A stretch of 64,000 bases of DNA from a virus (Duplodnaviria > Caudoviricetes), in the IMG/VR virus record IMGVR_UViG_3300035698_013504, positions 64,001 through 128,000 of that record; one strand, written 5' to 3'. This document shows, piece by piece, positions 29,484 through 49,803 of this stretch; the stretch's first letter is position 1; every line of letters starts with the position of its first letter. The translations under genes and the position numbers were made by a program. A model generated the notes under the pieces. The model had not been told where the DNA came from. It saw only the letters and a program-made list of their open reading frames with translations, and ran no database searches.

Positions 29484-29498
29484 GCGAGGATGAGAATC

Positions 29499-36023: not shown

Positions 36024-36772
36024 TGGCTAGAGCACACCTATTTCAAGAGTGGCGAGACCTGACACGGTACATCAAGTATCCGTTCATGGATAGCGCTACG
36101 CTTGTCAACAGTGTAGGCGACACCATCCCGGAGAATCTGTTCAGCGATGCAAGACTGTACCCTGTCGGCGGGGGCGCCGGACAGTTTCTGTCGCGCGTTA
36201 CTATCGATGACGATGTTGTCATCGCGATCTCGGACGCAAGTGGCGAAATCGCAACAGGCACGTTTGACTTTGACACTGAGATTGATGTCGTTAAGGTGCT
36301 TGACCTGTACGGTCGCCCCGCTGGTGTATTCGTATCGTCGTGGGACCGCTTACAAACACTTGTCAACTGGGCGCCAGGAGACCACGAGTTTGAGCGTGCG
36401 CAGACAGAGTTTGCTGCGGCTGTTGTTGTCCCGCAGCCCATCGTAGGTGTAAATGGTATCGTACTGGCCGACGCCACCGTGTTCACGGGCGAGGTCATAC
36501 TCGTAGGCCATGACGGTATCGTACTACGAGAGGACGGTGGTACGGTACGGGTTGACATCGTTGGCGATCCCTACTATCTTCGTAAGCTATGCGCCGAAGA
36601 AGAGGTCGAGCGCGAGTGTGTGCAGGGTCTAAAGACGATTAACGCGATTGCGGCCGTAGACGGTAGGTTCACGATCACCGCCGGAGACAATCTCGCCACC
36701 GATACAGTATTGAGAGTCACCCCGACAACCGATGGGCTGCGGCTCACCGTTGTTGGACAGAAAGGAATCTGA
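36023..36772 (+). CDS. fibre paralog 4
   Basis: EWRDLTRYIKYPF N-terminus; LKTINAI module; TAATG coupling upstream and TGATG coupling downstream. Confidence 0.6.
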   Translation: MARAHLFQEWRDLTRYIKYPFMDSATLVNSVGDTIPENLFSDARLYPVGGGAGQFLSRVTIDDDVVIAISDASGEIATGTFDFDTEIDVVKVLDLYGRPAGVFVSSWDRLQTLVNWAPGDHEFERAQTEFAAAVVVPQPIVGVNGIVLADATVFTGEVILVGHDGIVLREDGGTVRVDIVGDPYYLRKLCAEEEVERECVQGLKTINAIAAVDGRFTITAGDNLATDTVLRVTPTTDGLRLTVVGQKGI

Positions 36773-38415
36773 TGCCAGGCGTTGACTGGTACAACCATAA
36801 CGAGCACATTGATTACCCGTTCCTTACGAACGAGGTATCCAGCTCGTCGTCTGCAGCTGGGTCAGACAACTACATTGACCTCCGGGCGGACGTTACCGAG
36901 TTTCAAGCTGGTTGGGGGACGTTCCCGGCCGCCTATGCGCCTGAGGACTGCATCGACTTCGATACGCGGCATCCGAGTATACCCGATACGTCCACTTACG
37001 TGTGGACTAATGTCGCTCCGGCTGTTATCTCCTTTACAGCGGTTGACGTATCTGTACCTATTACCGGCTACTCCGTATTCTTCTACGCCAATGTGCCTGT
37101 AGGAACCACGATGCTCCTCCGGGCGGCGGAGTCGACAACCGTAAACAGTGACGTGTACGTCGTAGGTACAGGGGTAGCTCAGTGGCACGAGTTAGAGGTC
37201 GATAAAGCTTTTTCCGCCGTCGACTTTAACACAATCGTCTACTACTTTGTCAACACGGTCGTGCCCTCGCCTGTACAGACTAAAATGTACGCGTTTCATG
37301 TGCGCGCGCATTATCTCGGCGAGCCTGTTAACACGATGCCCTACGAGGGTAGAGGCGTTATCGACGCTGGCTTCATTTTGGGCCCCAATGCGGGCTTCGA
37401 CGTGTCACAGCACCAAGTTTACCTCCACAGCGTCACGAAGACCGAAGACAACATCGAGTTCGACTTCCGCACCGACGCGGCCGAGTTCGACGGCTGGCGC
37501 TTTCTGTTTACGAGAGACTTCACGACAGCCTGCTTTGGGGAAACCGAGTATGTGGACGCTGAGGAGATACCGGTTTCATCCTCATCCTCATCCTCGTCGT
37601 CTTCGTCCCTATCGTCATCGAGTAGCAGTTACTCATCAAGTTCTTCATGGTCGTCGTCGAGCAGCAGCGATTCGTCTAGCTCTTCGTCCTCTTCATGGTC
37701 ATCGTCATCGTCGAGTAGTAGCGACTCGTCGAGTTCATCCTCATCTAACTCGTCGTCGTCTAGCTCCTCGTCGTCTTCGAACAGCAGCTCTTCTTACTCT
37801 TCCTCGTCAAGCGCGGAGAGTTGGAGCTCATCCAGCAGTAGCTGGTCGTCAACAGCGGCTACGTACAACTTCATGGGCCGAGCGTTCCTCGTTACCGGCG
37901 ACTTGTCCGAGTACGATGAGTTGGAAGAAGGAGAGACACTCTATGCCTTTGCCAACATCGAACCAGCATGTATCCAGACGCTTGCCAACAGCTATGTAAC
38001 CGGCATCACGCTCGCGAATGATGGACGCAGATGCCCTACGCTTTGCGGGAGTAGCAGCTCCACGATGGGAGACGAGACAACCTTCTATCACACGCGTAAT
38101 ATGCGCGGCGCCATCATCTTACGAGAAGGGCACAATTGCGAGCTGGTTATCAACCCCGGCAATAATCAAGTGGAAATCAACGCCAATCTGGAGTATGGTA
38201 GAGGACAGACGTGCGTCGACATCATTATCGACGAGGCTGGGTTCTCCAGCGGACAGCTGTGTGAGTCTTGCGACGACTTCGTTACGGACATTAACGGTGT
38301 AGGCATTGAGGCCACATCGTTCAACATTTCTGGAGACTTCGGGGTTAAGGTTGTCCCCGATGCAGCGGGTCACCGCCTTGTTATCGAACTGGCAACGAAT
38401 CTTTGTGGCGCGTAG
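36772..38415 (+). CDS. fibre paralog 5 with long poly-Ser
   Basis: WYNHNEHIDYPF N-terminus; CESCDDFVTDINGV module. Confidence 0.65.
   Translation: MPGVDWYNHNEHIDYPFLTNEVSSSSSAAGSDNYIDLRADVTEFQAGWGTFPAAYAPEDCIDFDTRHPSIPDTSTYVWTNVAPAVISFTAVDVSVPITGYSVFFYANVPVGTTMLLRAAESTTVNSDVYVVGTGVAQWHELEVDKAFSAVDFNTIVYYFVNTVVPSPVQTKMYAFHVRAHYLGEPVNTMPYEGRGVIDAGFILGPNAGFDVSQHQVYLHSVTKTEDNIEFDFRTDAAEFDGWRFLFTRDFTTACFGETEYVDAEEIPVSSSSSSSSSSSLSSSSSSYSSSSSWSSSSSSDSSSSSSSSWSSSSSSSSDSSSSSSSNSSSSSSSSSSNSSSSYSSSSSAESWSSSSSSWSSTAATYNFMGRAFLVTGDLSEYDELEEGETLYAFANIEPACIQTLANSYVTGITLANDGRRCPTLCGSSSSTMGDETTFYHTRNMRGAIILREGHNCELVINPGNNQVEINANLEYGRGQTCVDIIIDEAGFSSGQLCESCDDFVTDINGVGIEATSFNISGDFGVKVVPDAAGHRLVIELATNLCGA
37576..37851 (+). 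repeat. poly-serine tract (~92 aa)
   Basis: mixed Ser codons punctuated by W/Y/D/N. Confidence 0.9.
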
Positions 38416-38424
38416 CGGACAACT

Positions 38425-40197
38425 ATGACAAACGCATTTTCATCAAGATCAGGGTGCTCGCTACCGGCTATACCGGCTATCGATGGCAACCTGCTGCCCA
38501 GTTGCACACTTGAGCTGCCCCCGGACCCTATATTCGCTGGCAACTACTTTGATTTCCCCATCCCGCCGCCGCCGGACTTCCTTTTTGGATGTTACGAGTT
38601 CGGTTTCCAGCACACGGGCACCGCCTGGACAGATCTTCAGGCAGTAGCTGAAGAGTCATCCGCGTTTGCGACCCCGGACCTATGCAATCCTACGGTCGAC
38701 GTACTGGTCTTGCCTGACGACGAACTGGGGTGGTGTGACCCAAAGGTCACGTTTGATCTAAAAATCCCAGCTACGCACATTACGATCTTTAACCCGGAAC
38801 GTCCCAGCTGTAAACACACGCTTGGCCGTATTGACATAGTTGAGAACCCCGGTTGTCGGTCTGTGCTCTCGATGGTGTTAACGTGGGCTGAGGCGTGCTT
38901 TGCGCCTGAAGTAAGCTTTAGCCCGGTCATCATATCGCCGGAGCTGCCGTCTCCGATACTTCCTTCTCCCGACGTATCCATTGAGGTATCCCCCGACGTA
39001 TCCATATCTCCTGGGGTATCCATATCTCCTGGGGTATCCATATCTCCTGGGATATCTGTATCGCCTGAAATAACGCCCAGCCCCGACCCGCCGTGGTTCT
39101 CGCCTGCAATTTGTACCCCGTCTTTATGTTGCTTCGGTAACTTCTCGGAGTACTACGGCGGTGAGTGTTCTACCGAAGCGAACGAGGCCGTGTGGGACTC
39201 GCTGGGTGGCCTTGGCCAATGGAATATGCAGTGCGGTCCCGACTCCACTTGTTCCGACGAGTATGACTGCGTCTATTCCATTGAATCGATGTATGTAGAC
39301 GGATTATGTCAGATACACTGGTGCCTGGAAGATGACGGCTGCACCTCCCCTTCGCCGTCTCCGACACCGACGCCGACTCCCGAGCCGACCCCTACTCCCG
39401 AGCCGACTCCGACGCCAACTCCAGAGCCGACTCCGACTCCGACCCCAGAGCCGACTCCGACCCCAACTCCAGAGCCGACTCCGACCCCGACCCCAGAGCC
39501 GACTCCGACCCTAGAGCCGACTCCGACTCCGTCCTCCCTTAGCCCAGGCCCGCCAGGCTGGACATGCGTTGAGAGAATAGATAAAGATGCGCTCGGAGCT
39601 ACAACCAGTCATACAGCAAAATGTTGGGCCGACACTTCAAGGTGGTTCGACTGGTTTGATTTCGACAAAGAATACACATTCGGCGACGGGACGTTTATAT
39701 TCCACAGTCTTGGAAGCTACCCAGATGCTTTTGAGTGTGAATTCTATTGTGAAGTGTCGCCGTCGCCATCTCCGAGCCCGTCTCCGAGCCCATCTCCAAG
39801 CCCGTCTCCAAGCCCATCTCCGAGCCCGTCTCCAGAGGAGGGCACTCTTTATATAACGTTCTCGAATCTCCGGCACGGGTTCACGCCTAGAGAGGGAGAA
39901 CATATGCTCATTGGTAGCATGGTGGGTGGCTCGTGGATTGACCCGGGAGATACCAACACTAGGCTCACATGGATGGGTAGCTTCTGGCGCACAGAATTCA
40001 GCGTCAACTACAACTGTGCGTGCGGGTTTGCTGACTCCTCAGGTTTAGGTCGCTGGGACAACCCGTGGAATGGCGTCTATGACCAGATCCACGGCTGTGC
40101 AGACTCCAACTGCGACGGTCCTCTTGGTAACCAAAGTTGTGATGTAGCTGGAGATGAGCCCCCGTATACGTGTACGGTTTCACTTTACCCGGCGTAG
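38425..40197 (+). CDS. Cys-rich multidomain protein with Pro/Thr/Ser mucin-like linkers
   Basis: (VSISPG)3, (TP/EP)n and (SP)13 tracts separating small Cys/Trp-rich domains. Confidence 0.65.
38998..39051 (+). repeat. 3 perfect copies of the 18-mer GTATCCATATCTCCTGGG (VSISPG)
   Basis: direct reading of the sequence. Confidence 0.9.
39343..39531 (+). repeat. PTPTPEPT-type linker, ~24-nt units
   Basis: CCAGAGCCGACTCCGAC... units encoding ~63 aa of P/T/E/S. Confidence 0.9.
39757..39834 (+). repeat. (Ser-Pro)13 tract
   Basis: mixed-codon SP repeat. Confidence 0.9.
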
Positions 40198-40223
40198 TAG
40201 CTTGACCTGTTAAGGAAAACCCG

Positions 40224-40658
40224 ATGGACATACTAGAAGACATAGACGAACCGTACCCTAAAGTTATGCAGGACTTTGACGCGGCGAAGAAACTCAACTG
40301 CCCGCACATGAGGCCCATAAAGAACGGGCCACTATCTAACTGCGAGCTTATCGCAGAGCTGGGCGGTGGGGATCTGCCTTTTGTCGGATCCATTTGCCTT
40401 AGTTGCGCTGGCGGGCCGCACCCATTTACTAAAGAAAGCCCACGTCTTAGAACTCTTGCCGCGCAGAGCATTCGAGTCATGGTCCGCGCAAGGTGTAAAA
40501 CGATAACTGAGGACACGCTCCTCAAGAGTGTGCGAGCTATAAAGGTATACACGGACGTCAACACCGCTGGAGGCATTCTCGTTCAGTGGGTACGTGACGG
40601 TTTACCGCAAGACCTTGCCGTCAAAGCAGCAACTAAAGAACTTTCTGAATTGATGTAA
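40224..40658 (+). CDS. hypothetical Cys-containing protein
   Basis: AAGGA SD; CPH...C...CLSC motif. Confidence 0.6.
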   Translation: MDILEDIDEPYPKVMQDFDAAKKLNCPHMRPIKNGPLSNCELIAELGGGDLPFVGSICLSCAGGPHPFTKESPRLRTLAAQSIRVMVRARCKTITEDTLLKSVRAIKVYTDVNTAGGILVQWVRDGLPQDLAVKAATKELSELM

Positions 40659-40713
40659 AGGCATAACAACGGTACTATGTAGCTGCGGCGCAGCATATAG
40701 AGGAGATACACCG

Positions 40714-42888
40714 ATGGCGGAAGACAACATCCTGGCGCGTATCCACGCGGCAACACAGGAGCTCAGCACAAACGGGGAGCTAGACAGGCGGATACACGAA
40801 GAGCTTACTCCCGGCATCAAGACACGGGTAATAGGTCCGTGCGCTTACAGGGGCAACGAGAAAGAGGCGCGAGAGAAACCGTGTTGTGGGGGTAAGAAAA
40901 CACGGGAAATCCTTTTTGCCTGTAGTCACCCAGAAATTGCAGCCGGGGAATCCTGGTCCGCTATCTGTCAGCGCTGTAGGTTCATATCCCCGGTCGCAAG
41001 CCAACCAAACAGCCTGCTGGGCGCCAAACGCATACTTGTTATGCCGTGGGGAGACAAGGGATCTATCCGCAACCTAATCCAAGCCCTCGACAAAATGTCG
41101 TTTGACGTGTCGGTTCTCCAACGTGGTGGAGGTGAGTGGAAGGACGCCGCGGTTGAGAAACTGAAGAACGAGCACTTCGACCTTGTTGTAACCTGGCAAC
41201 GCCTTTATAGCATGGGCTGGTGCGAAGAGGTCAACAAGATCATTGACGCGCGGAACATCCCTAAGCTCATCTTGGACTTTGGCGTGTGGGACCACTACAA
41301 GTCGGCTATCGTCGACCCGGTTGGTGATAACGCCGAATCTGCGGTAGCCGGTAACTTCATTCGGTTACTGCAAAACCCCTTGCAAGCCAAAGCTACAACA
41401 GATGCAATGATACGGTTACCGGCAATGGTTGATACGGTTAAGGCGTCGGCCGAGATAGGGGCGACGTATCTGGACGATGCAAACCTGTCCGGTCTTCCTA
41501 AAGACTTTATGCTTCTGCTTCTGCAGCGTACAGGAGACCAAGTACTTCTACGAGACGCTCCAAAGTCTAGGCAGGATCAAAGCCGTGTCGCCCGAGATAT
41601 CATTGCTGAGGCAAGACTCGCAGGCAAGTTTGTGGTTGTCAAGCCCCACCCGTTTGATAAGCCTTTAGAGGGCGTAGAGGCATCTGGGCCGCATCACCGG
41701 CTAGTAACAAACTTGACGATGGGAGATCAGAACACCGCGGTACTGTCGCATCTGCTGCTTAACTGCGAGCGGATGATCACCGTGAACTCCACAACAATCT
41801 TTATGGCCCAGTTGCTAGGCGTACCTGTATTCACGCTTGGTAAAGGCTGGTTTTCTGGGAACAGAGTTGCAAATGAACCCCCGCTGATTCGCGGTGCGGT
41901 TCTTGATAAGAATGCAGTAGACGTAGAGTACGCCAAGAAGTTCTTCGCGTTTATGTATAGCCGACAACTAACAATCGGTGAGTGTGGCGAGCCGGAAGCC
42001 GTGCTCAGGATCCTGAAGCTCATGCACCCGTCTTTGCTAGAGTCTTCGGAGGTGCAATCAAGCTCGTCGCCAGAGCCTCCAAAGGTTCCGACGCCGCAAA
42101 TCACGATGCCTACTATCAACGCCCAGGCCTTGTCGAAGACCCTAAAGCCCGCCCCACGCTCTGAGATGAAAGACGTTACCGCCATGCTGTTGACATGGAA
42201 GAGAGACTCCGCGCAGCAAGTAGTTAACTCTTTGCGCGACTCGGGCGTACAGAACATCTGGATATGGTGCAATGAGGGCGCAGCTGTACCTGATGGGGTC
42301 GATGTGTCCATCGTGTCTTCTACCAACCTAGGTAACTGGCAGCGTTTTGCGATGGCGCCGCTGGTTCCAACTTCACACATCCTTTATTGCGACGACGACT
42401 GTACGATTACGCCTGCCGGTATTCAGGCCCTTTCCAAGGGTATGGCGACGTTCCCCAACAACGTACTTGGTTTATGGGGGTGGGCGTTTAACCCGTCGTT
42501 CGAACACTACCGCCAGCGGGAGGAATTTCATAGCCACACGCTGCAGGGACATCAAGCGATGTATGCCGATATGATCTCCCCGTGTGGAATGCTCGCGCCG
42601 CGTATCGCTATCCAAGAGGCTATGGGTAAGGTTAACTACTGGAACACAGCCCTGAAGATATTTGGCGACCACACGTTGGACGATATGACACTTTGCCTGG
42701 CGATGTCGAAATGCGGATGTGGCAGGCCCGCTGTCGTACAGGGTGAGGGGGCCGGACTCAAGTTTATCAAAGACACCGCCCCCGCGTCTTCACTCGCTCT
42801 GAAACCGGGCCGTCGAGAGATACTATACACAGAGACACTTCCGGCGTTCCGCGGAATCGGATGGAGTCCGATTAAAGAGGGGAAGTAA
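40714..42888 (+). CDS. multidomain glycosyltransferase: Cys-rich N-terminus + capsule-biosynthesis (KpsS-like GT-B) domain + GT-A domain
   Basis: VVKPHP, ITVNSTT...LLGVPVFTLG (KpsS/KpsC-like); YCDDD DxD motif in the C-terminal domain. Confidence 0.7.
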   Translation: MAEDNILARIHAATQELSTNGELDRRIHEELTPGIKTRVIGPCAYRGNEKEAREKPCCGGKKTREILFACSHPEIAAGESWSAICQRCRFISPVASQPNSLLGAKRILVMPWGDKGSIRNLIQALDKMSFDVSVLQRGGGEWKDAAVEKLKNEHFDLVVTWQRLYSMGWCEEVNKIIDARNIPKLILDFGVWDHYKSAIVDPVGDNAESAVAGNFIRLLQNPLQAKATTDAMIRLPAMVDTVKASAEIGATYLDDANLSGLPKDFMLLLLQRTGDQVLLRDAPKSRQDQSRVARDIIAEARLAGKFVVVKPHPFDKPLEGVEASGPHHRLVTNLTMGDQNTAVLSHLLLNCERMITVNSTTIFMAQLLGVPVFTLGKGWFSGNRVANEPPLIRGAVLDKNAVDVEYAKKFFAFMYSRQLTIGECGEPEAVLRILKLMHPSLLESSEVQSSSSPEPPKVPTPQITMPTINAQALSKTLKPAPRSEMKDVTAMLLTWKRDSAQQVVNSLRDSGVQNIWIWCNEGAAVPDGVDVSIVSSTNLGNWQRFAMAPLVPTSHILYCDDDCTITPAGIQALSKGMATFPNNVLGLWGWAFNPSFEHYRQREEFHSHTLQGHQAMYADMISPCGMLAPRIAIQEAMGKVNYWNTALKIFGDHTLDDMTLCLAMSKCGCGRPAVVQGEGAGLKFIKDTAPASSLALKPGRREILYTETLPAFRGIGWSPIKEGK

Positions 42889-42893
42889 CAGCT

Positions 42894-43796
42894 ATGGGAA
42901 GCCTGTTAGATCGCATCAAGGATGCAGCACCCAAAGATCTGAAGCCTTACGTGCCGCCCGCCGATGATATGAAGGGGGCGCACATCTATATTCTATCGCA
43001 CGAGCGATATGAGCTGCTACGATGTTGTTTGGCGTCTGTATGCGCGTCTCCAATGACGTGCTATATCCATGTTATTGATGACTCGAGTCAAGATCCCCGC
43101 GTGATGAAACTGATATGCGCGTATCTTGAAGCGGGGCTCATTAAATCTGTTACTACCACTCCGCATCATCTGAAGCACGGCTGGTCGCGCCGTCTGATGA
43201 TGAACCATTTTGACGTAGATGATGCGCACACACTCATGCAGCTCGATGGAGATATTGTTGTGCCGCCAGGCGGCTGTGAACGTATGATCTCGATATTTCG
43301 TCAGCTTCATCAAAAGGCTGATGTACAGTGGCTTGGCGCGTGCCATATGGAGTATTTCTATGGTAAACCGAAGAATACACAAGAGGTCATTTCCGGTGAC
43401 GAGAGATATTTGATCGAACGCTTAACCCGCAATGCGAGTGAGGCCGCTTTCGTTATGTCAAAAGAAGCGGTCCGGTATAAACCTGCGCTAGATACGGTGG
43501 GGCCTCCTAGAACGCATCTCGGTAATTTTATTGTAAAGGTCGCGGAGATGGGAGTGACAGCAACCTTGATCACTCCGCCTATTCGGTTTCAACATATGGG
43601 GGCGTTTGATTCAATCGTTTGGCCGGGGCGCCCGTGGCCTCGCTACCTCTTTCGCGGCCTAGATGGTAAGCCATGGCAGCCCTTTGAGTGGTGTGAAATA
43701 GACTACAAGGAGATGGAAAGCCGCTACCCAAAATCCGTGAAAGAGTTGTCGGATAGAATTATCGAACACGCAGAAGTGGAGCTCCCAAGTGTCTAA
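42894..43796 (+). CDS. GT2-like (GT-A) glycosyltransferase
   Basis: HVIDDSSQD and QLDGD motifs, FQHMG. Confidence 0.7.
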   Translation: MGSLLDRIKDAAPKDLKPYVPPADDMKGAHIYILSHERYELLRCCLASVCASPMTCYIHVIDDSSQDPRVMKLICAYLEAGLIKSVTTTPHHLKHGWSRRLMMNHFDVDDAHTLMQLDGDIVVPPGGCERMISIFRQLHQKADVQWLGACHMEYFYGKPKNTQEVISGDERYLIERLTRNASEAAFVMSKEAVRYKPALDTVGPPRTHLGNFIVKVAEMGVTATLITPPIRFQHMGAFDSIVWPGRPWPRYLFRGLDGKPWQPFEWCEIDYKEMESRYPKSVKELSDRIIEHAEVELPSV

Positions 43797-45342
43797 TATC
43801 GTTGAACGTATCACAGCAGCGTCATCGTTTCAACAAGGTAGGGCAATCCAAGAGAGTAGGACAAAGGAAACCAGCGGAACCTCGCGGGTCATGAAGTTTC
43901 CGAAAGCTATTCGACACAAAGACTTTAGGATGTACGCCGCATCAATTCTGAATTCGGCGAAGTTCGCCGGTATCGATATCGTTTACGAGTCAGGTAGAAT
44001 CTCACCTGTAACGGGTCTTGTCTTCATCACGCTGAACGGCATTGACGCGATTATTGACTACGCGGACGGGCTAACTACCAGGTGCCCCGATGTCACAACT
44101 CCGGTGTTCAGATTCAACTACACGCCATTAGCGCCAAATCCACGCAACACTTACGCGTTTGTACCGCTGACTTTTTACGATTGGAACAGCTTCAACCAGA
44201 TGCGAGAGTCTCTACCGAAGAAAAGAAACACAACACAGATTATTGCGACACAGCGCATTTTTCCGCCCCGTCTACTTTGGGATGATTATTTTGATACTGT
44301 TGGCGTGGCAGCCCAGTTACCTATTCGTCGACCGGCGGCGTGCGGTCTAAACAACCACCCACGGGAATACGTCCGGGGTATACTAGAGCCCCATATTGGT
44401 AAGCGGTTCATTTGGAAACGAGAGAGCCGCGACGTCTTTCTTCAGCAGCTAGTTGACCATTTGTTTACGTTCCACGTGCCGGGTACGAGGTTTGGTATTC
44501 TAGACCGGACAGTTTCTGAACACATGGCGTTTGGCGGTTGTGCTATATCGTCTCAGATCCTCACCGAGCTGCCCTATGGGCAGAAGCTTATCCCCGGTGT
44601 ACACTACGTTCAGTGCGCAGACGACTTCTCCGATGTTTTAGAGGTCACCGATTGGTGTTTACAGAATGTGGATAAATGTGTGGCGATAGGTCAAAACGCA
44701 ATGAAACTGTTCGATGCTACCTATCGACCGGCCAAGGTATGGGATTGGGTGTATAACATGATAACGAATGATGATACCGAGAGTGACGCACGTAGGGTGT
44801 TTAATACACGACTGGCTAAGGTAAGAGCCGACAGAATCAACATGCAACAAAATGTCGAGGAGCTGTTTTCCGCGTTCATGGAAATGTGGAAGATTCATCC
44901 AAGTCGATTTATGGAGATAGGATCACTTAACGGCGGCTCCCTCTATATACTCGCCGGAGCATGTGCGCCGGGCGCTGTAATAGCCTGTTTCGATATTAAA
45001 CGAGTTACTAAACGCCAAGCGATACTTGACGATTTACGCCGAGAGGGGTTTTTGACGTATGAACAAATTGGCGACAGCGGCTCGATGCAGACTCTCGACC
45101 GATTCAAAAAGATGTTTCCTCGCGGTTTAGACGCTTTACACATTGACGGGGATCATGGTAAACCAAACTGTTTCCTTGACTTTGAGTGGTATGGAACATC
45201 AGTACGTAACGGAGGCCTGGTTCTTATCCACGACATAGCGACTAAGTTTGAGTGTGCGGAAGCGTGGCTGGAATTACGACATCGATACCGACACGCCGAG
45301 TATAAAAACGGGGGGCAAGGGATGGGCGTTCTATTTGTTTAG
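43789..45342 (+). CDS. glycosyltransferase-like domain fused to a class I SAM methyltransferase (Methyltransf_24-like)
   Basis: N-terminal ...RTVSEHMAFG...LIPGVHYV...DFSD (GT1_2/GT90-like); C-terminal FMEIGSLNGGS, DALHIDGDH, GGLVLIHD. Confidence 0.7.
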   Translation: MSNIVERITAASSFQQGRAIQESRTKETSGTSRVMKFPKAIRHKDFRMYAASILNSAKFAGIDIVYESGRISPVTGLVFITLNGIDAIIDYADGLTTRCPDVTTPVFRFNYTPLAPNPRNTYAFVPLTFYDWNSFNQMRESLPKKRNTTQIIATQRIFPPRLLWDDYFDTVGVAAQLPIRRPAACGLNNHPREYVRGILEPHIGKRFIWKRESRDVFLQQLVDHLFTFHVPGTRFGILDRTVSEHMAFGGCAISSQILTELPYGQKLIPGVHYVQCADDFSDVLEVTDWCLQNVDKCVAIGQNAMKLFDATYRPAKVWDWVYNMITNDDTESDARRVFNTRLAKVRADRINMQQNVEELFSAFMEMWKIHPSRFMEIGSLNGGSLYILAGACAPGAVIACFDIKRVTKRQAILDDLRREGFLTYEQIGDSGSMQTLDRFKKMFPRGLDALHIDGDHGKPNCFLDFEWYGTSVRNGGLVLIHDIATKFECAEAWLELRHRYRHAEYKNGGQGMGVLFV

Positions 45343-45372
45343 AGACCGCGGACAGTTTACGACCTAAGATAC

Positions 45373-45401
45373 TTGACTCGTAGCGACTGCGTTGCTAAAC
45401 T
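45373..45401 (+). promoter_or_regulatory. sigma70-type promoter
   Basis: TTGACT-N17-TAAACT with extended -10 TG at 45393-45394, upstream of the GT9 gene. Confidence 0.55.
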
Positions 45402-45425
45402 CAGAGGAACTAAACCCCATAGGAG

Positions 45426-46433
45426 GTGGCCATGCCAGAATCAGTTCTCGTGATAAATAAGCAGAGCCCCGGCGACTACATTGTTATGAGCTCAGCAATT
45501 CGCGACCTAGCTCGTAGGCACCCGGGTAGGTACAGGGTAGCGGTCAAGACGGCCACGAAGGACGTGTGGCGCGAGAACCCCTACATCGAACACGAGCCCC
45601 TCCCCGTCGAGCCAAAGCCCAACGCCTTCAAGGCGGGTTACCCTCTGATCCATAAGTCGAATCAGGAGCGTGTCCACTTTATGTGGGGCTTCATCGAGGA
45701 CATGAACCGCCACCTCCAGCTCGACGGGTCTCCAGGTCAAGAGCAGGTGGTGCTGACTGAGTTTCGACCCGACCTGCACCTGACGGACGAGGAGAAGTCA
45801 GTCCGCCCGTTCAAGGAGCCCTACTGGGTCATGGCGTCTGGCGGCAAGTACGACTTCACCGCCAAGTGGTGGAACCCCGCAAGGTGGCAGACGGTCGTCG
45901 ACAGCCTAGCCAAGCAGCATGTCCTGTGTGTCCAAGTAGGCGAGCAAGGGCATTACCACCCAAAGATGGCGGGTACGATCGACATGGTGGGCAAGACGCG
46001 CTTCAGAGACCTCATGAAGCTGATCTATCACGCTGAAGGCGTTATGTGCGTCGTCACGTGTCTTATGCACATCGCGGCTGCATTTAACCGCCCGTGCGTC
46101 GTTGTGGCTGGCGGTAGAGAGCCCTGGTGGTGGGAAGCTTACACCGCGGAGAATCGACTGACCAACATGCGGCGAGGCATACCCGACTGGAACCCGCCGG
46201 AGACAGACTTCTTTATCCCTCACCGATACATCCATACCTGTGGCCAGCTGGACTGCTGCAAGGCAGGTGGGTGTTGGAAGGGTAGCGTTGTGACGAACAA
46301 GGAGAAGGACAGGTGCAAAGCTCCCTACCTTGACGATGGCGCCACGATCCCACAATGCCTGGCGATGATTACGCCCGAGCTGGTTCACCAGTGTGTGATG
46401 AGCTATTACGAGGACGGCACGCTCACTCGATAG
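45426..46433 (+). CDS. GT9-family (ADP-heptose heptosyltransferase-like) glycosyltransferase
   Basis: SPGDYIV; IDMVGKT...LIYHAEGVMCVVTCLMHIAAAFNRPCVVVAGG GT9 signature. Confidence 0.8.
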   Translation: MAMPESVLVINKQSPGDYIVMSSAIRDLARRHPGRYRVAVKTATKDVWRENPYIEHEPLPVEPKPNAFKAGYPLIHKSNQERVHFMWGFIEDMNRHLQLDGSPGQEQVVLTEFRPDLHLTDEEKSVRPFKEPYWVMASGGKYDFTAKWWNPARWQTVVDSLAKQHVLCVQVGEQGHYHPKMAGTIDMVGKTRFRDLMKLIYHAEGVMCVVTCLMHIAAAFNRPCVVVAGGREPWWWEAYTAENRLTNMRRGIPDWNPPETDFFIPHRYIHTCGQLDCCKAGGCWKGSVVTNKEKDRCKAPYLDDGATIPQCLAMITPELVHQCVMSYYEDGTLTR

Positions 46434-46449
46434 CAACGTGTTACAGAAA
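46431..46449. promoter_or_regulatory. conserved intergenic imperfect palindrome, copy 3
   Basis: TAGCAACGTGTTACAGAAA, identical to 48926-48944. Confidence 0.55.
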
Positions 46450-46462
46450 CAGGAGAACACCG

Positions 46463-47800
46463 ATGGCACAGCTTGAACCGTTTACAGTAGCACCTGAAGA
46501 CATAGCCGCCTGCGCGGGCTGTGGTGAAGATGTACGTGGTGCTGCGTTCAAAGACGTAGAGACCTCGAGGATTGTATGCACAGAGTGCAAGGACCTCTAT
46601 ACTGCCCCGGCCAAGCCGCGGCTGCCTGCCGTAACGGTCCGTAGCGAGCCCATGGACGTTGAACCTGTCTACGACAGCCCGGTGGGCTATAAACCAGAAG
46701 AGCTTCAGCCCTGCGGTATATGCGCGATGCTGTTGCGCAGCGAAGAGTCCATGTGGGATGTTGGACGCAGGCGCATTCTGTGTAAGGTATGTGCGTCCAC
46801 CGAATACCCGGACCAGGTACGACTTGAATCTGGGATAGTCGTCACGAAGAAACCGGTTACCACCGACGCGGGCGAAGTGAAAGGCAACATCGAGGTAATC
46901 GAGGCCCGTAAGCGTGTTGACGACATGATGACCCAACAAGGTGCGGAAGTTCTTCAACAACTCCCCCCTACGGTTAGCGCCGCGCCTACGGTGCCAGACC
47001 ACCAGACCATACAGCGGCTAGGAGGACCTGACGTAGCAGCTATGATGCAGACACACCCAGAGCTCAGATACATCGAGCCGCCCGTTGAGATACACGTCCT
47101 TCTTTATGGCAACTACACCAACTTGCACTTCCGGTGCATCAACAGCATCATTGCCAATACCCCGCCCGGCACCTACTCTCTTCGTATTGGTTGCAACGAG
47201 GTGTGTGAGGAGACGATGAAGTGGTTGGAAACAAGCGTCATGACGCAAGTCGATGACGTCAGACTCTTTGTCGCCAGGAAGAACGTCAACAAGTATCCTC
47301 TCATGCAGAAGATGTTTGCGGACATTCAGTCGAAGTGGGTGGTGTGGTTCGACGATGACACGTACGTCCTCGACGGTAACTGGCTGCAGAATCTCTCGAT
47401 GAAGGTGGCTAAGCGGCGCCCGCAGGGCTATGCCTGCTTCGGTAAACCGCTATACGTCCACGTCAAAGAGGGGAACCAGGAGTGGATGAAGCAAGCCTCG
47501 TGGTATGAAGGCATGCCTTTCGCCGAACACCCTGACGCCAAGATGCGCGACAAGGGCTACAAGAAGGTAGACTTCATCCTTGGCGCGTGGTTCGCTATGG
47601 AAGCCTCGGTTATCCGCGAGCTTGGTTGGCCCGACAAACGCCTCAATCATAACGGTGGTGACGCCGCACTCGGCGAGGCGCTAAGGCAGCATGGGTACAA
47701 GCTCGACTGGTACCACGACGGTATCCGACCTGACGCCGAGGGCCGGGAGAACAGGCGTGGAACACATGAAGAGTATCCCGAGGCTGCACCAAAGCCGTAG
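46463..47800 (+). CDS. double Zn-finger N-terminus fused to a GT2-like glycosyltransferase
   Basis: AGGAG SD with ATG 46463; CAGC..CTEC and CGIC..CKVC; WFDDDTY DxD; FILGAWF, HNGGD. Confidence 0.7.
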   Translation: MAQLEPFTVAPEDIAACAGCGEDVRGAAFKDVETSRIVCTECKDLYTAPAKPRLPAVTVRSEPMDVEPVYDSPVGYKPEELQPCGICAMLLRSEESMWDVGRRRILCKVCASTEYPDQVRLESGIVVTKKPVTTDAGEVKGNIEVIEARKRVDDMMTQQGAEVLQQLPPTVSAAPTVPDHQTIQRLGGPDVAAMMQTHPELRYIEPPVEIHVLLYGNYTNLHFRCINSIIANTPPGTYSLRIGCNEVCEETMKWLETSVMTQVDDVRLFVARKNVNKYPLMQKMFADIQSKWVVWFDDDTYVLDGNWLQNLSMKVAKRRPQGYACFGKPLYVHVKEGNQEWMKQASWYEGMPFAEHPDAKMRDKGYKKVDFILGAWFAMEASVIRELGWPDKRLNHNGGDAALGEALRQHGYKLDWYHDGIRPDAEGRENRRGTHEEYPEAAPKP

Positions 47801-47804
47801 CTCA

Positions 47805-47813
47805 TGCTATAAT
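47805..47813 (+). promoter_or_regulatory. extended -10 promoter element
   Basis: TGCTATAAT, a perfect TGnTATAAT, ~30 nt before the 47843 start. Confidence 0.5.
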
Positions 47814-47842
47814 CTATGGAGCGGTATTGGAAAGGGAGCAGA

Positions 47843-48340
47843 ATGTCTTCATCGTCTTCATCGTCTTCATCCGCATGGCCGTACAGGTACGTAAAGCTAC
47901 AGAAGAGTGTACCCGTCCGTTGGGACAGAGGTGCGCTCCACGGGTACCGTATGCTCGTCGAGGTGACAGAAGCCTACCTAATGAGCAGTGCGATCTTCAT
48001 CTACCGCAGATTCTCTGCAGGTGCGGGCGAATCGGATACGTACGACGAGTTCACGAACGTCGCCTCCCCCGCGGATATGGAAGAGTACCCGCTGACAATA
48101 CCCAATGAGACAGGTCGGCCGTTCTTCCGCTTGGCCACCATTGATCTTATCTTCAGGAACCTGGCTGACGCCGATGACGTGTGGGAATACATCCAGGCCG
48201 AGGTGAACTCGCTTGTTGTAGGTCTGAACAGGATGGATGACCTGGAAGCCACGTCGGTTGCCTTCTTCGGTAGCTCCAGTTCGTCCTCAAGTAACTCATC
48301 CTCGTCAAGTAGCTATTCGTCATCCTCATCCTCAGAGTAG
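47843..48340 (+). CDS. protein with poly-Ser at both termini
   Basis: GGGAG SD; MSSSSSSSSSAWP... and ...GSSSSSSSNSSSSSSYSSSSSSE. Confidence 0.7.
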   Translation: MSSSSSSSSSAWPYRYVKLQKSVPVRWDRGALHGYRMLVEVTEAYLMSSAIFIYRRFSAGAGESDTYDEFTNVASPADMEEYPLTIPNETGRPFFRLATIDLIFRNLADADDVWEYIQAEVNSLVVGLNRMDDLEATSVAFFGSSSSSSSNSSSSSSYSSSSSSE

Positions 48341-48346
48341 GAAGCC

Positions 48347-48628
48347 ATGGCTCTATTTCTGTCAGAACAAGCATTGAACGGCATCCTCAACGACCTACGA
48401 GTTCGAGCGGAGTTTCCGCAGCTGTCCTCCCTATGGCGTGAGACCCGCAACAAGAAGCCGTGCAAGTGCAACAGGAGCAAGGCTAGAACGAAGATACTCC
48501 AACGAGCAAAGCGCGCGATTACGAGCCTGCCCCCGGCGAAATTGGGGAGGCTGAAAGAAATACTCGGGATCAAGAATATAGAGGTTTGTACCCTTGAGGG
48601 AGGGGTGGTCAAGCAGGTGACGCTATGA
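48347..48628 (+). CDS. basic hypothetical protein (CKC motif)
   Basis: AGGA SD; 93-aa ORF. Confidence 0.6.
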   Translation: MALFLSEQALNGILNDLRVRAEFPQLSSLWRETRNKKPCKCNRSKARTKILQRAKRAITSLPPAKLGRLKEILGIKNIEVCTLEGGVVKQVTL

Positions 48629-48688
48629 CCCGATCGCCTTCATACATCCCGCTTAGAGGGTTACTATAAGCTGGAGACCCGTAGCTGT

Positions 48689-48915
48689 GCACTTCCTCCC
48701 ATAGGAGGTGTTGGTTGGCAAGATTGTCAGCGTTTCAAATAGGAAAGTTACTAGCAATCATATTTTGGATTCTAGTGTTCCTTTGGTTTATTGGCGGCTC
48801 GGGTTAACCACCCGAGTCTTGGGGGCTAACGCATTTATGTGTTGGGCCCCCTCTCAGGGGGCCCAGCATGTGGCCTTACTCTTAGCTATGCGTCCTTACA
48901 CACGCACATGCGTGT
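48689..48915 (+). other. multi-hairpin non-coding region (possible structured RNA or regulatory leader)
   Basis: four inverted repeats in a ~320-nt gap, the longest ~16 bp with G-U pairs. Confidence 0.4.
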
Positions 48916-48925
48916 AGACGCTGAA

Positions 48926-48944
48926 TAGCAACGTGTTACAGAAA
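48926..48944. promoter_or_regulatory. conserved intergenic imperfect palindrome, copy 4
   Basis: TAGCAACGTGTTACAGAAA. Confidence 0.55.
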
Positions 48945-48955
48945 GGACAGCACCG

Positions 48956-49264
48956 ATGGCACAGGAAATGCAAACCGTACTCGGCAACGGTAACACCATC
49001 ACCGTCGTAAGTTCGGAGTTCGAACACGGTGACCTTATCGTGATCCTCGAAGGTCAAAAGCCTGACGAGGTTGGTTCCGCCGAAGCCAGACAGCTCGCAT
49101 ACAGTGTCCGAACGCAGAAGGGCATGGAGTCCGCTGGCCTTGAGGCTCAAGGCGGCCCGTATCCCGTGGATGAGAAAGGCGACCTCGTAGCCGCTGGCGC
49201 TCCGGTCGAGCCTGAGAACCTCAGGTTCCGGCAGGCCTTCAAGCTGAACAGGACACGGATGTGA
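48956..49264 (+). CDS. hypothetical protein
   Basis: AAGGA SD; 102 aa. Confidence 0.65.
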   Translation: MAQEMQTVLGNGNTITVVSSEFEHGDLIVILEGQKPDEVGSAEARQLAYSVRTQKGMESAGLEAQGGPYPVDEKGDLVAAGAPVEPENLRFRQAFKLNRTRM

Positions 49265-49803
49265 TCTCCGCAACAGTCAAAGACTTAATCACGGCAGACG
49301 AGTACACGCTGCAGGACATACGGCAGGGGATGTCCATCTTCCATAATCACGATCACCTCATATTCCACCCGGGGTGTGAGGAGATCGAGTTGATGGCGGA
49401 TGACATCCTTGTCGTGTCTCTGCATCGTCTACTTCTCTATATGGGGTTCGGCGCTCAGCATGTGCGTTCAATCATTGAGCACTTCAAGGATCAGCTGATA
49501 GCTATAGGGCTAGCTGTGGGTGATATGCGGAAAGTGCCGGTGATGGCGTCCACGCTACAGATCATCGACTACCGGTGGGCAATACTGGATGGGGGCATCT
49601 GGAACTTCGTGGACTACGAGGTGTCGGCGCCGCCTGAGGTACCGTTGACGTCGATCGCTATTGGGCTGCCGGTTGCTGTATACCGGGCAGTTGGAAAGAC
49701 TGCAAAGCTTCTGGAGACCCGTTCAAAAGCGGAAGAGATGAGAGCTGATCGTGAACAAGACGGATCTGCTCCAGTACCCCAGCCTCCAGCTCCTGAAGAA
49801 TAG
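49261..49803 (+). CDS. hypothetical protein
   Basis: GTGA overlap coupling; 180 aa. Confidence 0.55.
   Translation: MISATVKDLITADEYTLQDIRQGMSIFHNHDHLIFHPGCEEIELMADDILVVSLHRLLLYMGFGAQHVRSIIEHFKDQLIAIGLAVGDMRKVPVMASTLQIIDYRWAILDGGIWNFVDYEVSAPPEVPLTSIAIGLPVAVYRAVGKTAKLLETRSKAEEMRADREQDGSAPVPQPPAPEE

Follow-up and report, generated by a model that had tools for sequence, protein, structure and literature searches.

The capsid protein of chloroviruses and the fibrils of mimivirus bear virus-specific glycans, which these giant viruses make independently of their hosts with virus-encoded sets of several glycosyltransferases (GTs) that include methyltransferases. Among phages, O-glycans reportedly decorate the Ser/Thr-rich tails of virion proteins in the mycobacteriophages Che8, Corndog and Myrna. 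According to PMC12582341, which cites Freeman et al. 2023 (Cell Host Microbe 31:1216), virion glycosylation by phage-encoded GTs is established in mycobacteriophages. Three bacterial systems are also close. TibC and Aah, of the BAHT family (TIGR04414; PDB 4RAP/4RB4; PMC4358343), are GT9-fold enzymes that hyper-glycosylate serines of the repetitive proteins TibA and AIDA-I in the cytoplasm. The capsule enzymes KpsC/KpsS, together with WbbB (GT107/GT99; PF05159), are CMP-Kdo-dependent retaining transferases, defined by a QXXXD nucleophile and an HP motif (PMC10148158). Finally, the Maf enzymes of Campylobacter, Aeromonas and Clostridium attach CMP-activated nonulosonates to Ser and Thr of a surface filament protein, flagellin, again in the cytoplasm, and PF01973 is their catalytic domain (bioRxiv 10.1101/2020.06.03.131540).

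The locus studied here resembles each of these systems in part. It lies in the complete 200,903-bp genome of a salt-lake jumbo phage, with terminal repeats at its ends; we analysed a stretch of 64,000 nucleotides of this genome, called the window below. At the end of the tail/baseplate block, five tightly packed genes (40714-47800, + strand), numbered GT1 to GT5, encode six GT domains and one SAM methyltransferase, along with metal-finger segments rich in Cys. The GT domains comprise a KpsC-like beta-Kdo-type GT-B, three GT-A, a GT90/GT1_2-like GT-B and a member of family GT9:

40224..40658, + strand: small Cys-rich protein of 144 amino acids, between the mucin-like gene and GT1 (translation)
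40714..42888, + strand: GT1, two-domain enzyme of 724 amino acids (Pfam, structure searches, motifs)
about 40831-40998, + strand: N-terminal Cys cluster of GT1
about 41026-42045, + strand: KpsC/KpsS-like retaining beta-Kdo-type GT-B of GT1 (Pfam Capsule_synth, Foldseek)
about 42163-42885, + strand: GT-A of GT1, GT2/GT64 type (Atlas)
42894..43796, + strand: GT2, single-domain GT-A of family GT2 (Pfam, motifs)
43789..45342, + strand: GT3, fusion of a GT-B and a class I SAM methyltransferase (Atlas, Pfam)
about 43858-44778, + strand: GT-B of GT3, GT90/Glyco_trans_1_2-like
about 44914-45237, + strand: Methyltransf_24 domain of GT3
45426..46433, + strand: GT4, GT-B of family GT9 (Pfam, NCBIfam, AF2, Foldseek, VIA)
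46463..47800, + strand: GT5, zinc-ribbon-like units and a GT-A (start codon context, Pfam, motifs)
about 46511-46795, + strand: two CxxC...CxxC zinc-ribbon-like units of GT5 (four CxxC pairs)
about 47132-47707, + strand: GT-A of GT5, DDD at 297
48835..48873, + strand: terminator-like hairpin with an 18-bp stem, the strongest of the region (consensus scan)

An initial annotation, made from the sequence alone, had described this five-gene cassette with about six GT domains and a methyltransferase. All five ORFs are found on the + strand as listed, and each domain was confirmed singly: Pfam, AF2/Foldseek, Atlas and VIA agree with its calls of a KpsS-like GT-B joined to a GT-A, a GT2, a GT joined to a SAM methyltransferase, a GT9, and a zinc finger joined to a GT2. 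The gaps between the genes range from -8 to 83 nt, and the cassette shares the strand of the preceding gene block, which contains a Baseplate_J match. It stands at the border of the structural block, adjoining a primase-like gene, and not strictly inside it. The transcription unit containing the cassette probably ends at the hairpin, in a region where the consensus scan finds no more terminator-like sites in total than in shuffled sequence. The small Cys-rich protein before GT1 has no match in Pfam, PHROG or NCBIfam; in the two closest relatives (L002 and L003/L010) a homolog of it immediately precedes the GT1 homolog, and it is a possible member of the cassette.

We propose, with a rough probability of 0.55, that the cassette is a late, cytoplasmic, multi-enzyme system for attaching O-glycans to the Ser/Pro/Thr-rich tail proteins of the phage itself. 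As in mycobacteriophages, phage GT genes stand beside structural genes, and the acceptors, here candidates by sequence only, are Ser/Thr-rich. Host and phage type differ, the present phage having a Baseplate_J-type tail block; the enzymes are of GT9, KpsC-like, GT90-like and GT-A (three domains) families with a methyltransferase; there are six GT domains instead of one to a few; and the candidate acceptors are tail or fibre proteins with very long poly-Ser tracts. The giant viruses share with this phage a virus-encoded multi-GT set including a methyltransferase, but they infect eukaryotes and use other GT families, whereas this is a tailed phage with Ser runs as candidate acceptors.

The N-terminal domain of GT1 has the fold of KpsC. 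Residues 105-444 give a confident AF2 model, and Foldseek places seven KpsC beta-Kdo transferases at the top of its PDB matches (E 4e-10 to 4e-8). GT1 reaches 31.1 bits against Pfam Capsule_synth (cut-off 20), and by sequence the match to solved KpsC is marginal (E 0.04). The motifs QRTGD (271-275) and HP (312-313), invariant in eight homologs, are those of beta-Kdo GTs, the first being of the QXXXD nucleophile type (PMC10148158). Read from its sequence, GT1 bears the motifs of CMP-ulosonic-acid transferases. A GT-A with DDD at 560 occupies residues 484-724 (Atlas TM 0.75-0.82 against GT2/GT64 clusters). GT1 differs from KpsC/KpsS in being phage-encoded, fused to this GT-A and to a Cys cluster, and without capsule export genes nearby; its acceptor-binding N-lobe is divergent, and a CMP-nonulosonate made by the phage itself is an equally conceivable donor.

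This last point bears on the earlier proposal of a complete pathway fed by host nucleotide sugars. The window indeed holds no nucleotide-sugar genes, but a NeuB and CMP-transferase/GT29 (CMP-nonulosonate) cluster lies about 38 kb beyond it in the same genome. Because of this cluster, a supply of host sugars only is an incomplete account, and the CMP-ulosonic-acid motifs of GT1 point the same way. The genome's own candidate nonulosonate transferase is a GT29 fusion in that cluster, separate from the cassette.

GT4 belongs to family GT9: it scores 45.7 bits in Pfam (cut-off 22), its AF2 model has a pLDDT of 95, and VIA gives Z scores of 20-24 against GT9 structures, the next folds being at about 11. 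A PGD motif holds D17, and K147 and GGRE (229-232) are also present. By fold, GT4 lies as near to TibC, a protein heptosyltransferase (catalytic domain, Z 21.0, 20% identity), as to the LPS enzymes (Z 20-22). In its C-lobe, at the position of the TibC iron finger, it carries an inserted cluster of conserved Cys (277, 278, 283, 297, 311). Membership of the BAHT family was considered and rejected: the Aah/TibC model is the best one in NCBIfam, but with 34 bits against a family cut-off of 200; the N-terminal beta-barrel that TibC needs is absent; and in a profile search of the PDB, WaaF (E 7.5e-6) scores better than TibC, and by profile WaaF and WaaC are at least as near to GT4 as TibC is. The putative acceptors of GT4 would be disordered Ser runs instead of a beta-helix.

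Elsewhere, glycolipid synthesis is the main setting in which GT9 and KpsC-type enzymes are known: these are the textbook families for the heptose part of the LPS inner core and for the poly-Kdo linker of capsules. In a live rival reading, if an unlikely one, the target during infection is a glycolipid of the host envelope: a Kdo-transferase-like and a heptosyltransferase-like enzyme, assisted by the other GTs and the methyltransferase, would modify nascent LPS core or a capsule linker; this could block superinfection or keep progeny off debris. The nearness of the GT4 profile to WaaF, the presence of WaaF and WaaC among its top structural matches, and the KpsC likeness and motifs of GT1 all speak for it. 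Against it, none of the five cassette proteins has a membrane-like segment or an amphipathic anchor. As the initial annotation had noted for flippases, Pfam detects no flippase, Gtr-type or lipid-carrier-enzyme family among the ORFs scanned (all those in 33750-48340 and the larger ones in the remainder of the window). The cassette is also packed with tail genes on one strand, not with early or lysogeny genes.

GT2 matches Glycos_transf_2 (25.5 bits, cut-off 23.3), with DDS at 62 and DGD at 118; its gene has a low GC3 (0.53), and it has no homolog in L002-L029, so that among the relatives sampled only this phage has it. Residues 24-330 of GT3 resemble GT90/Glyco_trans_1_2 (Atlas TM 0.73; weak Pfam GT90, E 0.014), and residues 376-483 match Methyltransf_24 (Pfam, E 3e-10). 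The closest PDB match of the latter is an O-methyltransferase, 2gpy (E 0.003), and the domain is probably a sugar O-methyltransferase. An exhaustive search finds the two halves of GT3 mostly as separate proteins; its hit list contains no full-length relative of similar size, and two proteins of about 1000 amino acids, with two matched stretches each, may bear both halves. For GT5 the most likely start is the ATG at 46463, which follows AGGAG, and not 46355, which overlaps GT4; its isolated GT-A domain matches Glyco_tranf_2_3 (28.2 bits, cut-off 27).

The Ser-rich proteins, among them the candidate acceptors, are the following:

2481..4982, + strand: 833-aa protein in which a Laminin_G_3 domain is accompanied by Ser runs at the N-terminus (about 80 Ser)
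29490..31394, + strand: 634-aa tail-block protein with three Ser runs, one C-terminal
33750..36023, + strand: 757-aa tail-block protein with nine Ser runs
36772..38415, + strand: 547-aa tail-block protein whose two conserved domains are separated by about 90 residues of poly-Ser with interruptions
38425..40197, + strand: 'mucin-like' 590-aa Cys-rich protein, a candidate acceptor with long (SP)n and (TPEP)n tracts (translation)
47816..48340, + strand: 174-aa protein, a candidate acceptor whose conserved core is flanked by poly-Ser at either end (translation)

The gene at 2481..4982 adjoins a radical SAM/SPASM gene. With poly-Ser defined as runs of five or more Ser, 7/38 genes of the structural block have it, versus 1/201 elsewhere in the genome (Fisher p = 1.1e-5). 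The tracts use all six Ser codons, a mixture that points to selection acting on the protein. They lie at protein ends or at the hinges that join conserved domains, with lengths that differ among relatives: homologs of 36772..38415 have 0 to about 50 residues at the same hinge. Homologs of 33750..36023 occur in all related loci, and one of 38425..40197 in matching position in L003/L010. The initial annotation, right about the mucin-like tracts, had placed the cassette directly between Ser-rich genes: 47816-48340 does adjoin it, but 40224-40658 lies before GT1. PHROGs gives no match for the Ser-rich and tail-block proteins, and 47816-48340 has no known fold or family in the databases searched, Pfam included. 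We infer that the Ser-rich proteins are virion proteins from a Baseplate_J match and gene order.

Related phages allow the enzymes to be compared with the tracts. The GT9 gene occupies the same position in 18/20 related loci, just upstream of the 47816-48340 homolog. It is often fused to, or beside, a GT5-like GT-A: tblastn finds GT5-like segments inside or beside the GT9 ORF in L018-L027, and in many relatives the GT-A is joined to the GT9 C-terminus. Homologs of 47816-48340 follow the GT9 gene in most relatives, and 9/11 of those beside it have at least 4 Ser in their last 12 residues; the two loci lacking GT9 keep the homolog, without a Ser-rich C-terminal tail. The enzymes around this core differ by relative (Maf-like protein O-glycosyltransferases, GT2s, methyltransferases, a second GT9) and vary along with fibre-like genes, which argues against glycolipid remodelling. 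GT-plus-methyltransferase sets recur in matching position in L013, L019 and L078. Where this phage has GT2 and GT3, its two closest relatives (L002, L010) have two or three MptE-like/PF01973 domains (E 5e-17 to 2e-26). Maf-type domains are, to our knowledge, known only as protein O-glycosyltransferases, a further point against a glycolipid target; the window's own cassette has no PF01973, and its likeness to the Maf system lies in these sister cassettes and in the NeuB and CMP-transferase genes of the genome.

Over six (near-)complete related genomes, the Ser in runs number none in G013, 16 in G002, 56 in G003, 77 in G005, 291 in this phage and 584 in G009. G013 has no match to GT9, GT2 or GT1, and G002 has GT9 only; G009, without GT9, has two GT2 genes 3.6 kb after giant Ser-rich genes. 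The coupling is not strict: L012/G002, L022, L025 and L027 have GT9 with no or almost no poly-Ser, so the GT9 core enzyme does not depend on poly-Ser, and the presence/absence comparison is not significant, with too few independent genomes lacking GT9.

Retention of GT9 without poly-Ser fits glycolipid remodelling. It also fits a doubtful reading in which the target is another cytoplasmic one (host flagellin or pilin, a non-virion phage protein, a small molecule) and the poly-Ser tracts are flexible linkers nearby. The neighbour 47816-48340, being without known family, and the flagellins that Maf-type enzymes natively modify would agree with it. However, poly-Ser is concentrated in the cassette's own gene block (p = 1e-5), the gene that follows the GT9 core repeatedly encodes a Ser-rich C-terminal tail, and GT genes stand beside extreme poly-Ser genes in the independent relatives G009 and L078.

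Hyper-glycosylation of phage DNA is poorly supported, and we consider it very improbable. We know of no DNA glycosyltransferase in the GT9 and KpsC-like families, and the cassette is in the tail block, not beside replication genes. Phage GT sets that decorate DNA with multi-sugar chains do exist, and the known routes begin at 5hmC, 5hmU or 5hoC, via thymidylate-synthase homologs or a methyltransferase with a TET enzyme (bioRxiv 10.1101/2023.12.21.572611; PMC13326640). The complete genome has no match to Thymidylat_synt, for which control matches occur in 10/14 genomes, or to Tet_JBP, in a search without positive control.

A protein acceptor in the virion is the best-supported target. Several indirect lines favour it: the tight packing of the cassette at the end of the tail block, soluble enzymes, the concentration of poly-Ser in that block, the conserved GT9 core upstream of a Ser-tailed protein, and the Maf-type domains in the cassette slot of the two closest relatives. 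The recurrent GT9 core, the 9/11 Ser tails, the GT-methyltransferase sets and the six-genome trend suggest tail proteins, as does the modelled closeness of GT4 to the TibC fold; the BAHT score of GT4, the GT9-bearing relatives nearly without poly-Ser and the border position of the cassette count against them.

If tail proteins are the target, the acceptor, donors, order of action and timing may be conjectured as follows. The poly-Ser, (SP)n and (TP)n tracts of tail-module proteins would be modified before or during assembly. GT4 and the GT-A of GT5 would put the first sugars on Ser, from a host nucleotide sugar, most simply ADP-heptose; the lineage-specific GT-A of GT1, GT2 and the GT-B of GT3 would lengthen the chain; the KpsC-like domain of GT1 would attach a CMP-activated ulosonic acid, either host Kdo or nonulosonate from the phage's own NeuB cluster; and the methyltransferase of GT3 would cap a sugar hydroxyl. 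Fibres and baseplate proteins would end up coated with a mucin-like glycan, and the composition of this coat would differ among related phages, since their accessory enzymes are swapped.

The phage genome is a 200,903-bp record with direct terminal repeats, rated complete, of which the window covers bases 64001 to 128000. A long block of co-oriented genes runs along the + strand of the window and includes a Baseplate_J protein and a Laminin_G_3 protein adjoining a radical SAM/SPASM gene. Five glycosyltransferase genes, here GT1 to GT5, follow one another on the same strand with intergenic gaps of -8 to 83 nt, between two genes whose products are candidate acceptors. The features that we will need are the following:

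25632-27278, + strand: Baseplate_J protein
38425-40197: mucin-like gene, candidate acceptor
40224-40658: Cys-rich gene (144 aa) between the mucin-like gene and GT1, which accompanies GT1 in relatives
40714-42888, + strand: GT1, KpsC-like domain and GT-A
42894-43796, + strand: GT2, GT-A
43789-45342, + strand: GT3, GT-B and methyltransferase
45426-46433, + strand: GT4, GT9 family
46463-47800, + strand: GT5, CxxC pairs and GT-A
47816-48340: Ser-tailed protein, candidate acceptor
48835-48873: strong hairpin, the only one, 3' of the Ser-tailed gene and one further small gene
54777-56567, strand opposite to the tail block: terminase large subunit

Our main reading, to which we give a probability of about 0.55, is that this cassette O-glycosylates the phage's own tail-block proteins in the cytoplasm, and that it is co-transcribed with the tail genes. 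Against 50,697 GenBank phage records, no match was found by megablast of the cassette, nor by tblastn with GT4 or with 36023-36772, a conserved protein of the tail block, so that no cultured relative served for comparison. PHROGs gave no family for any cassette or flanking protein, and the only matches among the neighbours are sigma-factor-like and primase-like. The first is a 261-aa protein inside the structural block (23943-24728; RNA polymerase sigma factor family phrog_351, E 3e-13); the second, of 915 aa (51553-54300; weak DNA primase match, E 4e-4), is conserved just past the module and divergent to 50454-51551. Because of this primase-like neighbour, we place the cassette at the border of the structural block. 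Since 47816-48340 has neither a usable match nor a model in the Atlas and none of the homologs of 36023-36772 bears a name, we infer the virion role of both; the Ser-rich proteins are taken to be virion proteins on the basis of the Baseplate_J match and gene order.

Runs of at least five consecutive Ser residues, which we call poly-Ser, occur in 8 proteins of the genome, and 7 of these are encoded within 1968-48340 of the window (7 of the 38 genes in this interval versus 1 of the 201 elsewhere, Fisher p = 1.1e-5). The runs draw on all six Ser codons, which argues that it is the protein sequence that is maintained, and that slippage of one DNA repeat did not produce the tracts. They are terminal in 47816-48340, at both ends, and in 2481-4982, at the N-terminus; in 36772-38415 the tract sits at a hinge between conserved domains, and the same hinge holds from 0 to about 50 residues in relatives. 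The mucin-like gene has additional long (SP)n and (TPEP)n tracts. Glycosyltransferase genes beside structural genes, with Ser/Thr-rich tails on presumed virion proteins, are seen here and form the gene context of virion O-glycosylation of the mycobacteriophage type. That the Ser tracts are mere linkers, and that the enzymes act on some other cytoplasmic target, seems to us quite unlikely.

The 4-kb stretch 43789-47800 is also present in salt-lake metagenomes: three runs from separate studies (2017-2019) each contain at least one third of its sampled words, and short contigs from four salt-lake runs align to 36000-50000 of the window with zero differences. Contigs of four runs break or mis-join at the Ser-codon tracts 37575-37713 and 47852-47871. 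A contig joint from 37608 to 47852, which lies between Ser-codon repeats and has only 20 nt on one side, was taken as an assembly artefact, and the tract lengths of such genes in assemblies may be unreliable.

The initial annotation had called five ORFs with about six glycosyltransferase domains and a methyltransferase, and its gene and domain calls are borne out by Pfam, structure models and motifs: the cassette totals six glycosyltransferase domains, one methyltransferase and three Cys-rich segments. GT4 is the core enzyme. It belongs to GT9 by its Pfam score (PF01075, 45.7 bits versus a gathering cut-off of 22), and its AF2 model (pLDDT 95) has a GT-B fold nearest to solved GT9 enzymes, with VIA Z scores of 23.8 for 3tov, 22.2 for WaaF, 21.0 for TibC and about 20 for WaaC, the next folds lying at about 11. 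Three residues that are unvarying across 28 homologs fall on known motif positions: D17 on the N-terminal catalytic Asp (GD in WaaF), K147 on the donor-binding Lys (DKHW in WaaC), and E232 on the acidic donor-binding residue (the Asp of PTDP in WaaC). Because these WaaC/WaaF-type residues are conserved, ADP-heptose would be the simplest donor.

Membership of GT4 in the BAHT family of TibC and Aah (TIGR04414) was considered and rejected: this is its top-scoring NCBIfam model, though the score is 34.3 bits against a cut-off of 200, and the beta-barrel is missing. Residue 1 of GT4 aligns with residue 91 of TibC, so that no domain precedes its GT-B part; in TibC, the N-terminal beta-barrel domain is needed for activity (PMC4358343). 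Five conserved Cys residues of GT4 (277, 278, 283, 297 and 311) sit in an inserted segment that immediately precedes the last helix, comparable in position, rather than by residue-level superposition, to Cys 339, 342, 358 and 370 of TibC, whose Cys4 iron finger, inserted in the C-lobe, is needed for assembly and substrate binding (PMC4358343). The Cys clusters of the cassette proteins may be structural metal sites.

GT1, of 724 aa, has a Cys cluster at its N-terminus, then a confidently modelled domain (residues 105-444). This domain matches Capsule_synth (PF05159, 31.1 bits versus a gathering cut-off of 20); its best seven PDB matches by Foldseek are all KpsC beta-Kdo transferases (E 4e-10 to 4e-8), and the matches include WbbB as well. 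The segments Q271-R-T-G-D275 and H312-P313 are unvarying in 8 homologs, and their spacing agrees with the aligned KpsC segment; a QXXXD motif, which holds the nucleophile Asp, and an HP motif define the retaining CMP-Kdo transferases (PMC10148158). By Pfam, fold and both motifs, the domain is thus of the retaining beta-Kdo glycosyltransferase type (GT107), with a divergent acceptor lobe. It may use either Kdo or the nonulosonate of the phage itself as donor. The C-terminal 240 residues of GT1 form a GT-A domain with a DDD motif, for which we rely on the model in the Atlas together with the DxD motif because the AF2 fold is poor (pLDDT 30-70). Elsewhere, the domain types of the cassette are found shuffled into single proteins: metagenomic P0131 (1043 aa) unites a methyltransferase, a KpsC-like Capsule_synth domain and GT9 in one chain, and P0134 joins Capsule_synth to Methyltransf_24.

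Among the other enzymes, GT2 is a plain GT2-family GT-A by Pfam. GT3 begins with a GT-B part that resembles GT90/Glyco_trans_1_2 proteins and continues with a Methyltransf_24 part that, among solved structures, is closest to an O-methyltransferase; an exhaustive search found these halves mostly as separate proteins elsewhere. GT5 has four CxxC pairs followed by GT-A, and most likely starts at 46463, with AGGAG ahead, and not at 46355, which would overlap GT4. Single-sequence PDB searches with GT1, GT2, GT3 and GT5 gave nothing useful. The GC3 of GT2 and GT3 is 0.51-0.53, versus 0.74 for GT4, a difference that would fit a recent acquisition of the former.

A hydropathy scan found no membrane-like segment in any cassette protein, the highest 19-residue values (1.1-1.8) falling within Rossmann-type strands, and Pfam found no membrane family in the cassette. 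Seroconversion of the Gtr type was rejected as an explanation, since by the same two methods the cassette is without a membrane-embedded glycosyltransferase, a flippase or bactoprenol-linked parts. Remodelling of host LPS or capsule glycolipids would be the natural reading of the GT9 and KpsC-like families, but it fits poorly with this absence of membrane association and with the late-operon position.

We now turn to the relatives. Two scans of IMG/VR were made: one, with 36023-36772, yielded 20 loci around its homologs, and the other, with 50454-51551, yielded 33. In 18 of the 20, the conserved tail genes have a GT4 homolog (35-76% identity) 2-10 kb on their downstream side; a GT5-like GT-A is often part of the same protein or comes after it, and a homolog of the Ser-tailed protein is next in most loci. 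The two most distant of the 20 have neither GT9 nor GT-A and keep the Ser-tailed protein homolog. At least four Ser are found in the last 12 residues of 9 of the 11 such homologs from GT9-bearing phages, and the homologs of GT9-lacking loci have no such Ser tail at the end. The initial annotation had suggested comparing the presence of the enzymes with the Ser tracts, which we did in six complete or nearly complete related genomes.

Table. Glycosyltransferases and Ser residues in runs of at least five, in six related genomes (genome; glycosyltransferases; Ser in runs)
G013; no GT9, GT2 or GT1 match; 0
G002; GT9 only; 16
G003; several; 56
G005; several; 77
present phage; cassette and second cluster; 291
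G009; GT9 absent, two GT2 genes present (3.6 kb past giant genes of 26-27% Ser); 584

The direction is the expected one, but strict coupling of poly-Ser to the GT9 core fails: the most Ser-rich genome, G009, is without GT9, and four GT9-bearing relatives (L012/G002, L022, L025 and L027) have no run of five Ser or more within their 20-kb loci. Poly-Ser thus tracks the enzymes only loosely, with too few independent GT9-lacking genomes for statistics. Clearly, the GT9 core does not need long poly-Ser, and its basic target may be shorter Ser-rich tails; the GT9 of poly-Ser-poor relatives also speaks for host LPS or capsule remodelling. G009 itself is a distant complete relative (185 kb, GC 0.40) with the most extreme Ser-rich proteins that we saw, of 240 aa (49% Ser), 1877 aa (27%), 1105 aa (26%) and 880 aa (27%), at L096:2500-17360, L097:960-5684 and L098:15250-17892. 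Its giant pair is followed by the two GT2 genes, by a gene for a dNMP kinase and by one for a B12-radical SAM protein.

The stretch that separates the fibre-sized genes from the GT9 core varies in gene content from phage to phage. This slot holds GT1, GT2 and GT3 in the present phage; in its two closest relatives it holds GT1, two or three MptE-like/PF01973 domains and a DUF5662 protein, with an HNH endonuclease in one of them. Other loci have two GT2 genes and a Methyltransf_24/rhamnosyl-O-methyltransferase-like gene (L013), a GT2-methyltransferase fusion (L019), a second GT9 (L016), a Glyco_trans_1_2-like gene (L026), or a protein of 46% Ser with a methyltransferase gene and a GT8-like gene next to it (L078). 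In this last locus (L078:530-8224), the Ser-rich protein, of 481 aa, is encoded two genes ahead of a GT9 fusion of 731 aa, after which come the Methyltransf_23 gene and then the GT8-like gene; Ser-rich proteins and glycosyltransferases are thus paired here once more, independently. The HNH endonuclease gene of L002 (7297-8073) is inserted between the GT9 and GT5 homologs. Some relatives have, just upstream of the GT9 core, a fibre-sized ORF with a Glycos_transf_1 domain (G005:194876-195256, in an ORF of 626 aa, which clusters with L011:15280-17259 and L017:15929-17788), so that not all large genes of the variable region are fibres.

The Maf-type (PF01973) domains of the closest relatives (L010:16543-17938, L002:3828-5961) take the slot of GT2 and GT3. 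PF01973 is the catalytic domain of Maf, which O-glycosylates flagellin Ser/Thr with nonulosonic acids in the cytoplasm (bioRxiv 10.1101/2020.06.03.131540). Maf enzymes are the sole enzymes seen in the slot whose known acceptors are exclusively proteins, and their occurrence in sister cassettes is a further argument against remodelling of host LPS or capsule, which we hold to be unlikely.

A second glycosylation cluster lies about 38 kb past the window (L030:3197-14320, or 166196-177320 of the phage genome). It encodes NeuB (E 5e-59), a cytidylyltransferase (CMP-transferase) fused to a GT29 sialyltransferase domain, a formyltransferase, a polysaccharide deacetylase, a GT2/GT7C protein, three radical SAM proteins and an HNH endonuclease. 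From the NeuB and cytidylyltransferase genes, we predict that the phage makes at least one CMP-activated nonulosonate itself. The earlier proposal that the glycan is built from host nucleotide sugars was thus incomplete, and it stands for the other donors: the whole genome has no match to SIS_2 (GmhA-type isomerase), Epimerase (SDR), NTP_transferase (sugar-1-phosphate nucleotidyltransferase) or CTP_transf_like, so these donors must come from the host, and a host supply of ADP-heptose would be needed for GT4. The CMP-ulosonate-type motifs of GT1, together with the Maf domains of sister cassettes, would connect the two loci by their chemistry. NeuB is absent from five larger relatives, which also lack GT1; the two closest relatives are fragments of 14-32%, in which its absence is uninformative. 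Three relatives have a small CTP_transf_like nucleotidyltransferase (G001:97505-97891, G002:157420-157722, G005:17244-17537), absent from the present phage, which could activate a sugar or alditol phosphate.

Known DNA-glycosylation systems enter through thymidylate-synthase homologs, or through a methyltransferase with a TET enzyme (bioRxiv 10.1101/2023.12.21.572611; PMC13326640). The complete genome has no PF00303 thymidylate-synthase homolog, in a search whose controls gave matches, and no Tet_JBP (PF12851), in a search run without a positive control. With no partner enzyme for a hydroxylated or hydroxymethylated base found in the genome, and a genomic context that is not the expected one, we consider glycosylation of the phage DNA highly improbable.

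If the cassette indeed modifies tail-block proteins, its most likely mode of action would be the following, in which we infer every step beyond the identity of the domains. The cassette would be transcribed together with the tail genes, and its soluble enzymes would modify tail-block proteins in the cytoplasm soon after their synthesis. The first sugars would be placed onto Ser by GT4 together with GT5, most simply from ADP-heptose; the three other transferase domains would lengthen the chain, the KpsC-like domain of GT1 would attach either Kdo or a nonulosonate, and the methyltransferase of GT3 would cap the chain. A more elaborate version, which we offer only tentatively and with some doubt, is a mucin-like coat on tail fibres and baseplate: GT9 would start O-glycans on poly-Ser tags, the KpsC-type enzyme would add the ulosonic acid of the NeuB cluster, the fused methyltransferase would cap the chain, and jumbo relatives would swap accessory enzymes, thereby varying the glycan as bacteria vary their O-antigens.

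By function, the closest known system is the virion glycosylation of mycobacteriophages, reportedly described by Freeman et al. in 2023; the present phage is uncultured, and its acceptors are presumed ones. Mycobacteriophage virion glycans alter antibody recognition and, to our knowledge, glycosylated phage particles have been documented experimentally only for these phages. The core enzyme has its nearest parallel in TibC/Aah with TibA/AIDA-I, although GT4 falls outside that family, and GT1 has its nearest in KpsC/KpsS. The GT9 family is known for heptosylating LPS and autotransporters; our literature search found no published account of GT9-like enzymes beside Ser-rich phage fibres. What would be new here are other enzyme families, more domains, targets in the tail and not the capsid, Ser tags of great length, a second locus for sugar synthesis and a modular layout that extends across the clade.

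Sugar-coated tail proteins are the hypothesis that we draw from these sequences. If the cassette does coat them, virion glycosylation would be widespread among environmental jumbo phages, families presumed to serve LPS and capsule (GT9, KpsC-type) would serve it, and it would evolve by module swapping around a conserved core. The mucin-like coat, if real, would mean that a bacteriophage encodes, at two loci, its own pathway for a complex protein glycan that is acidic and methylated. If the tail proteins are coated, poly-Ser tags with a GT9 core would be simple sequence markers that predict glycosylated virions in metagenomes, and the soluble enzymes, able to glycosylate Ser tracts, would be of use in glyco-engineering.
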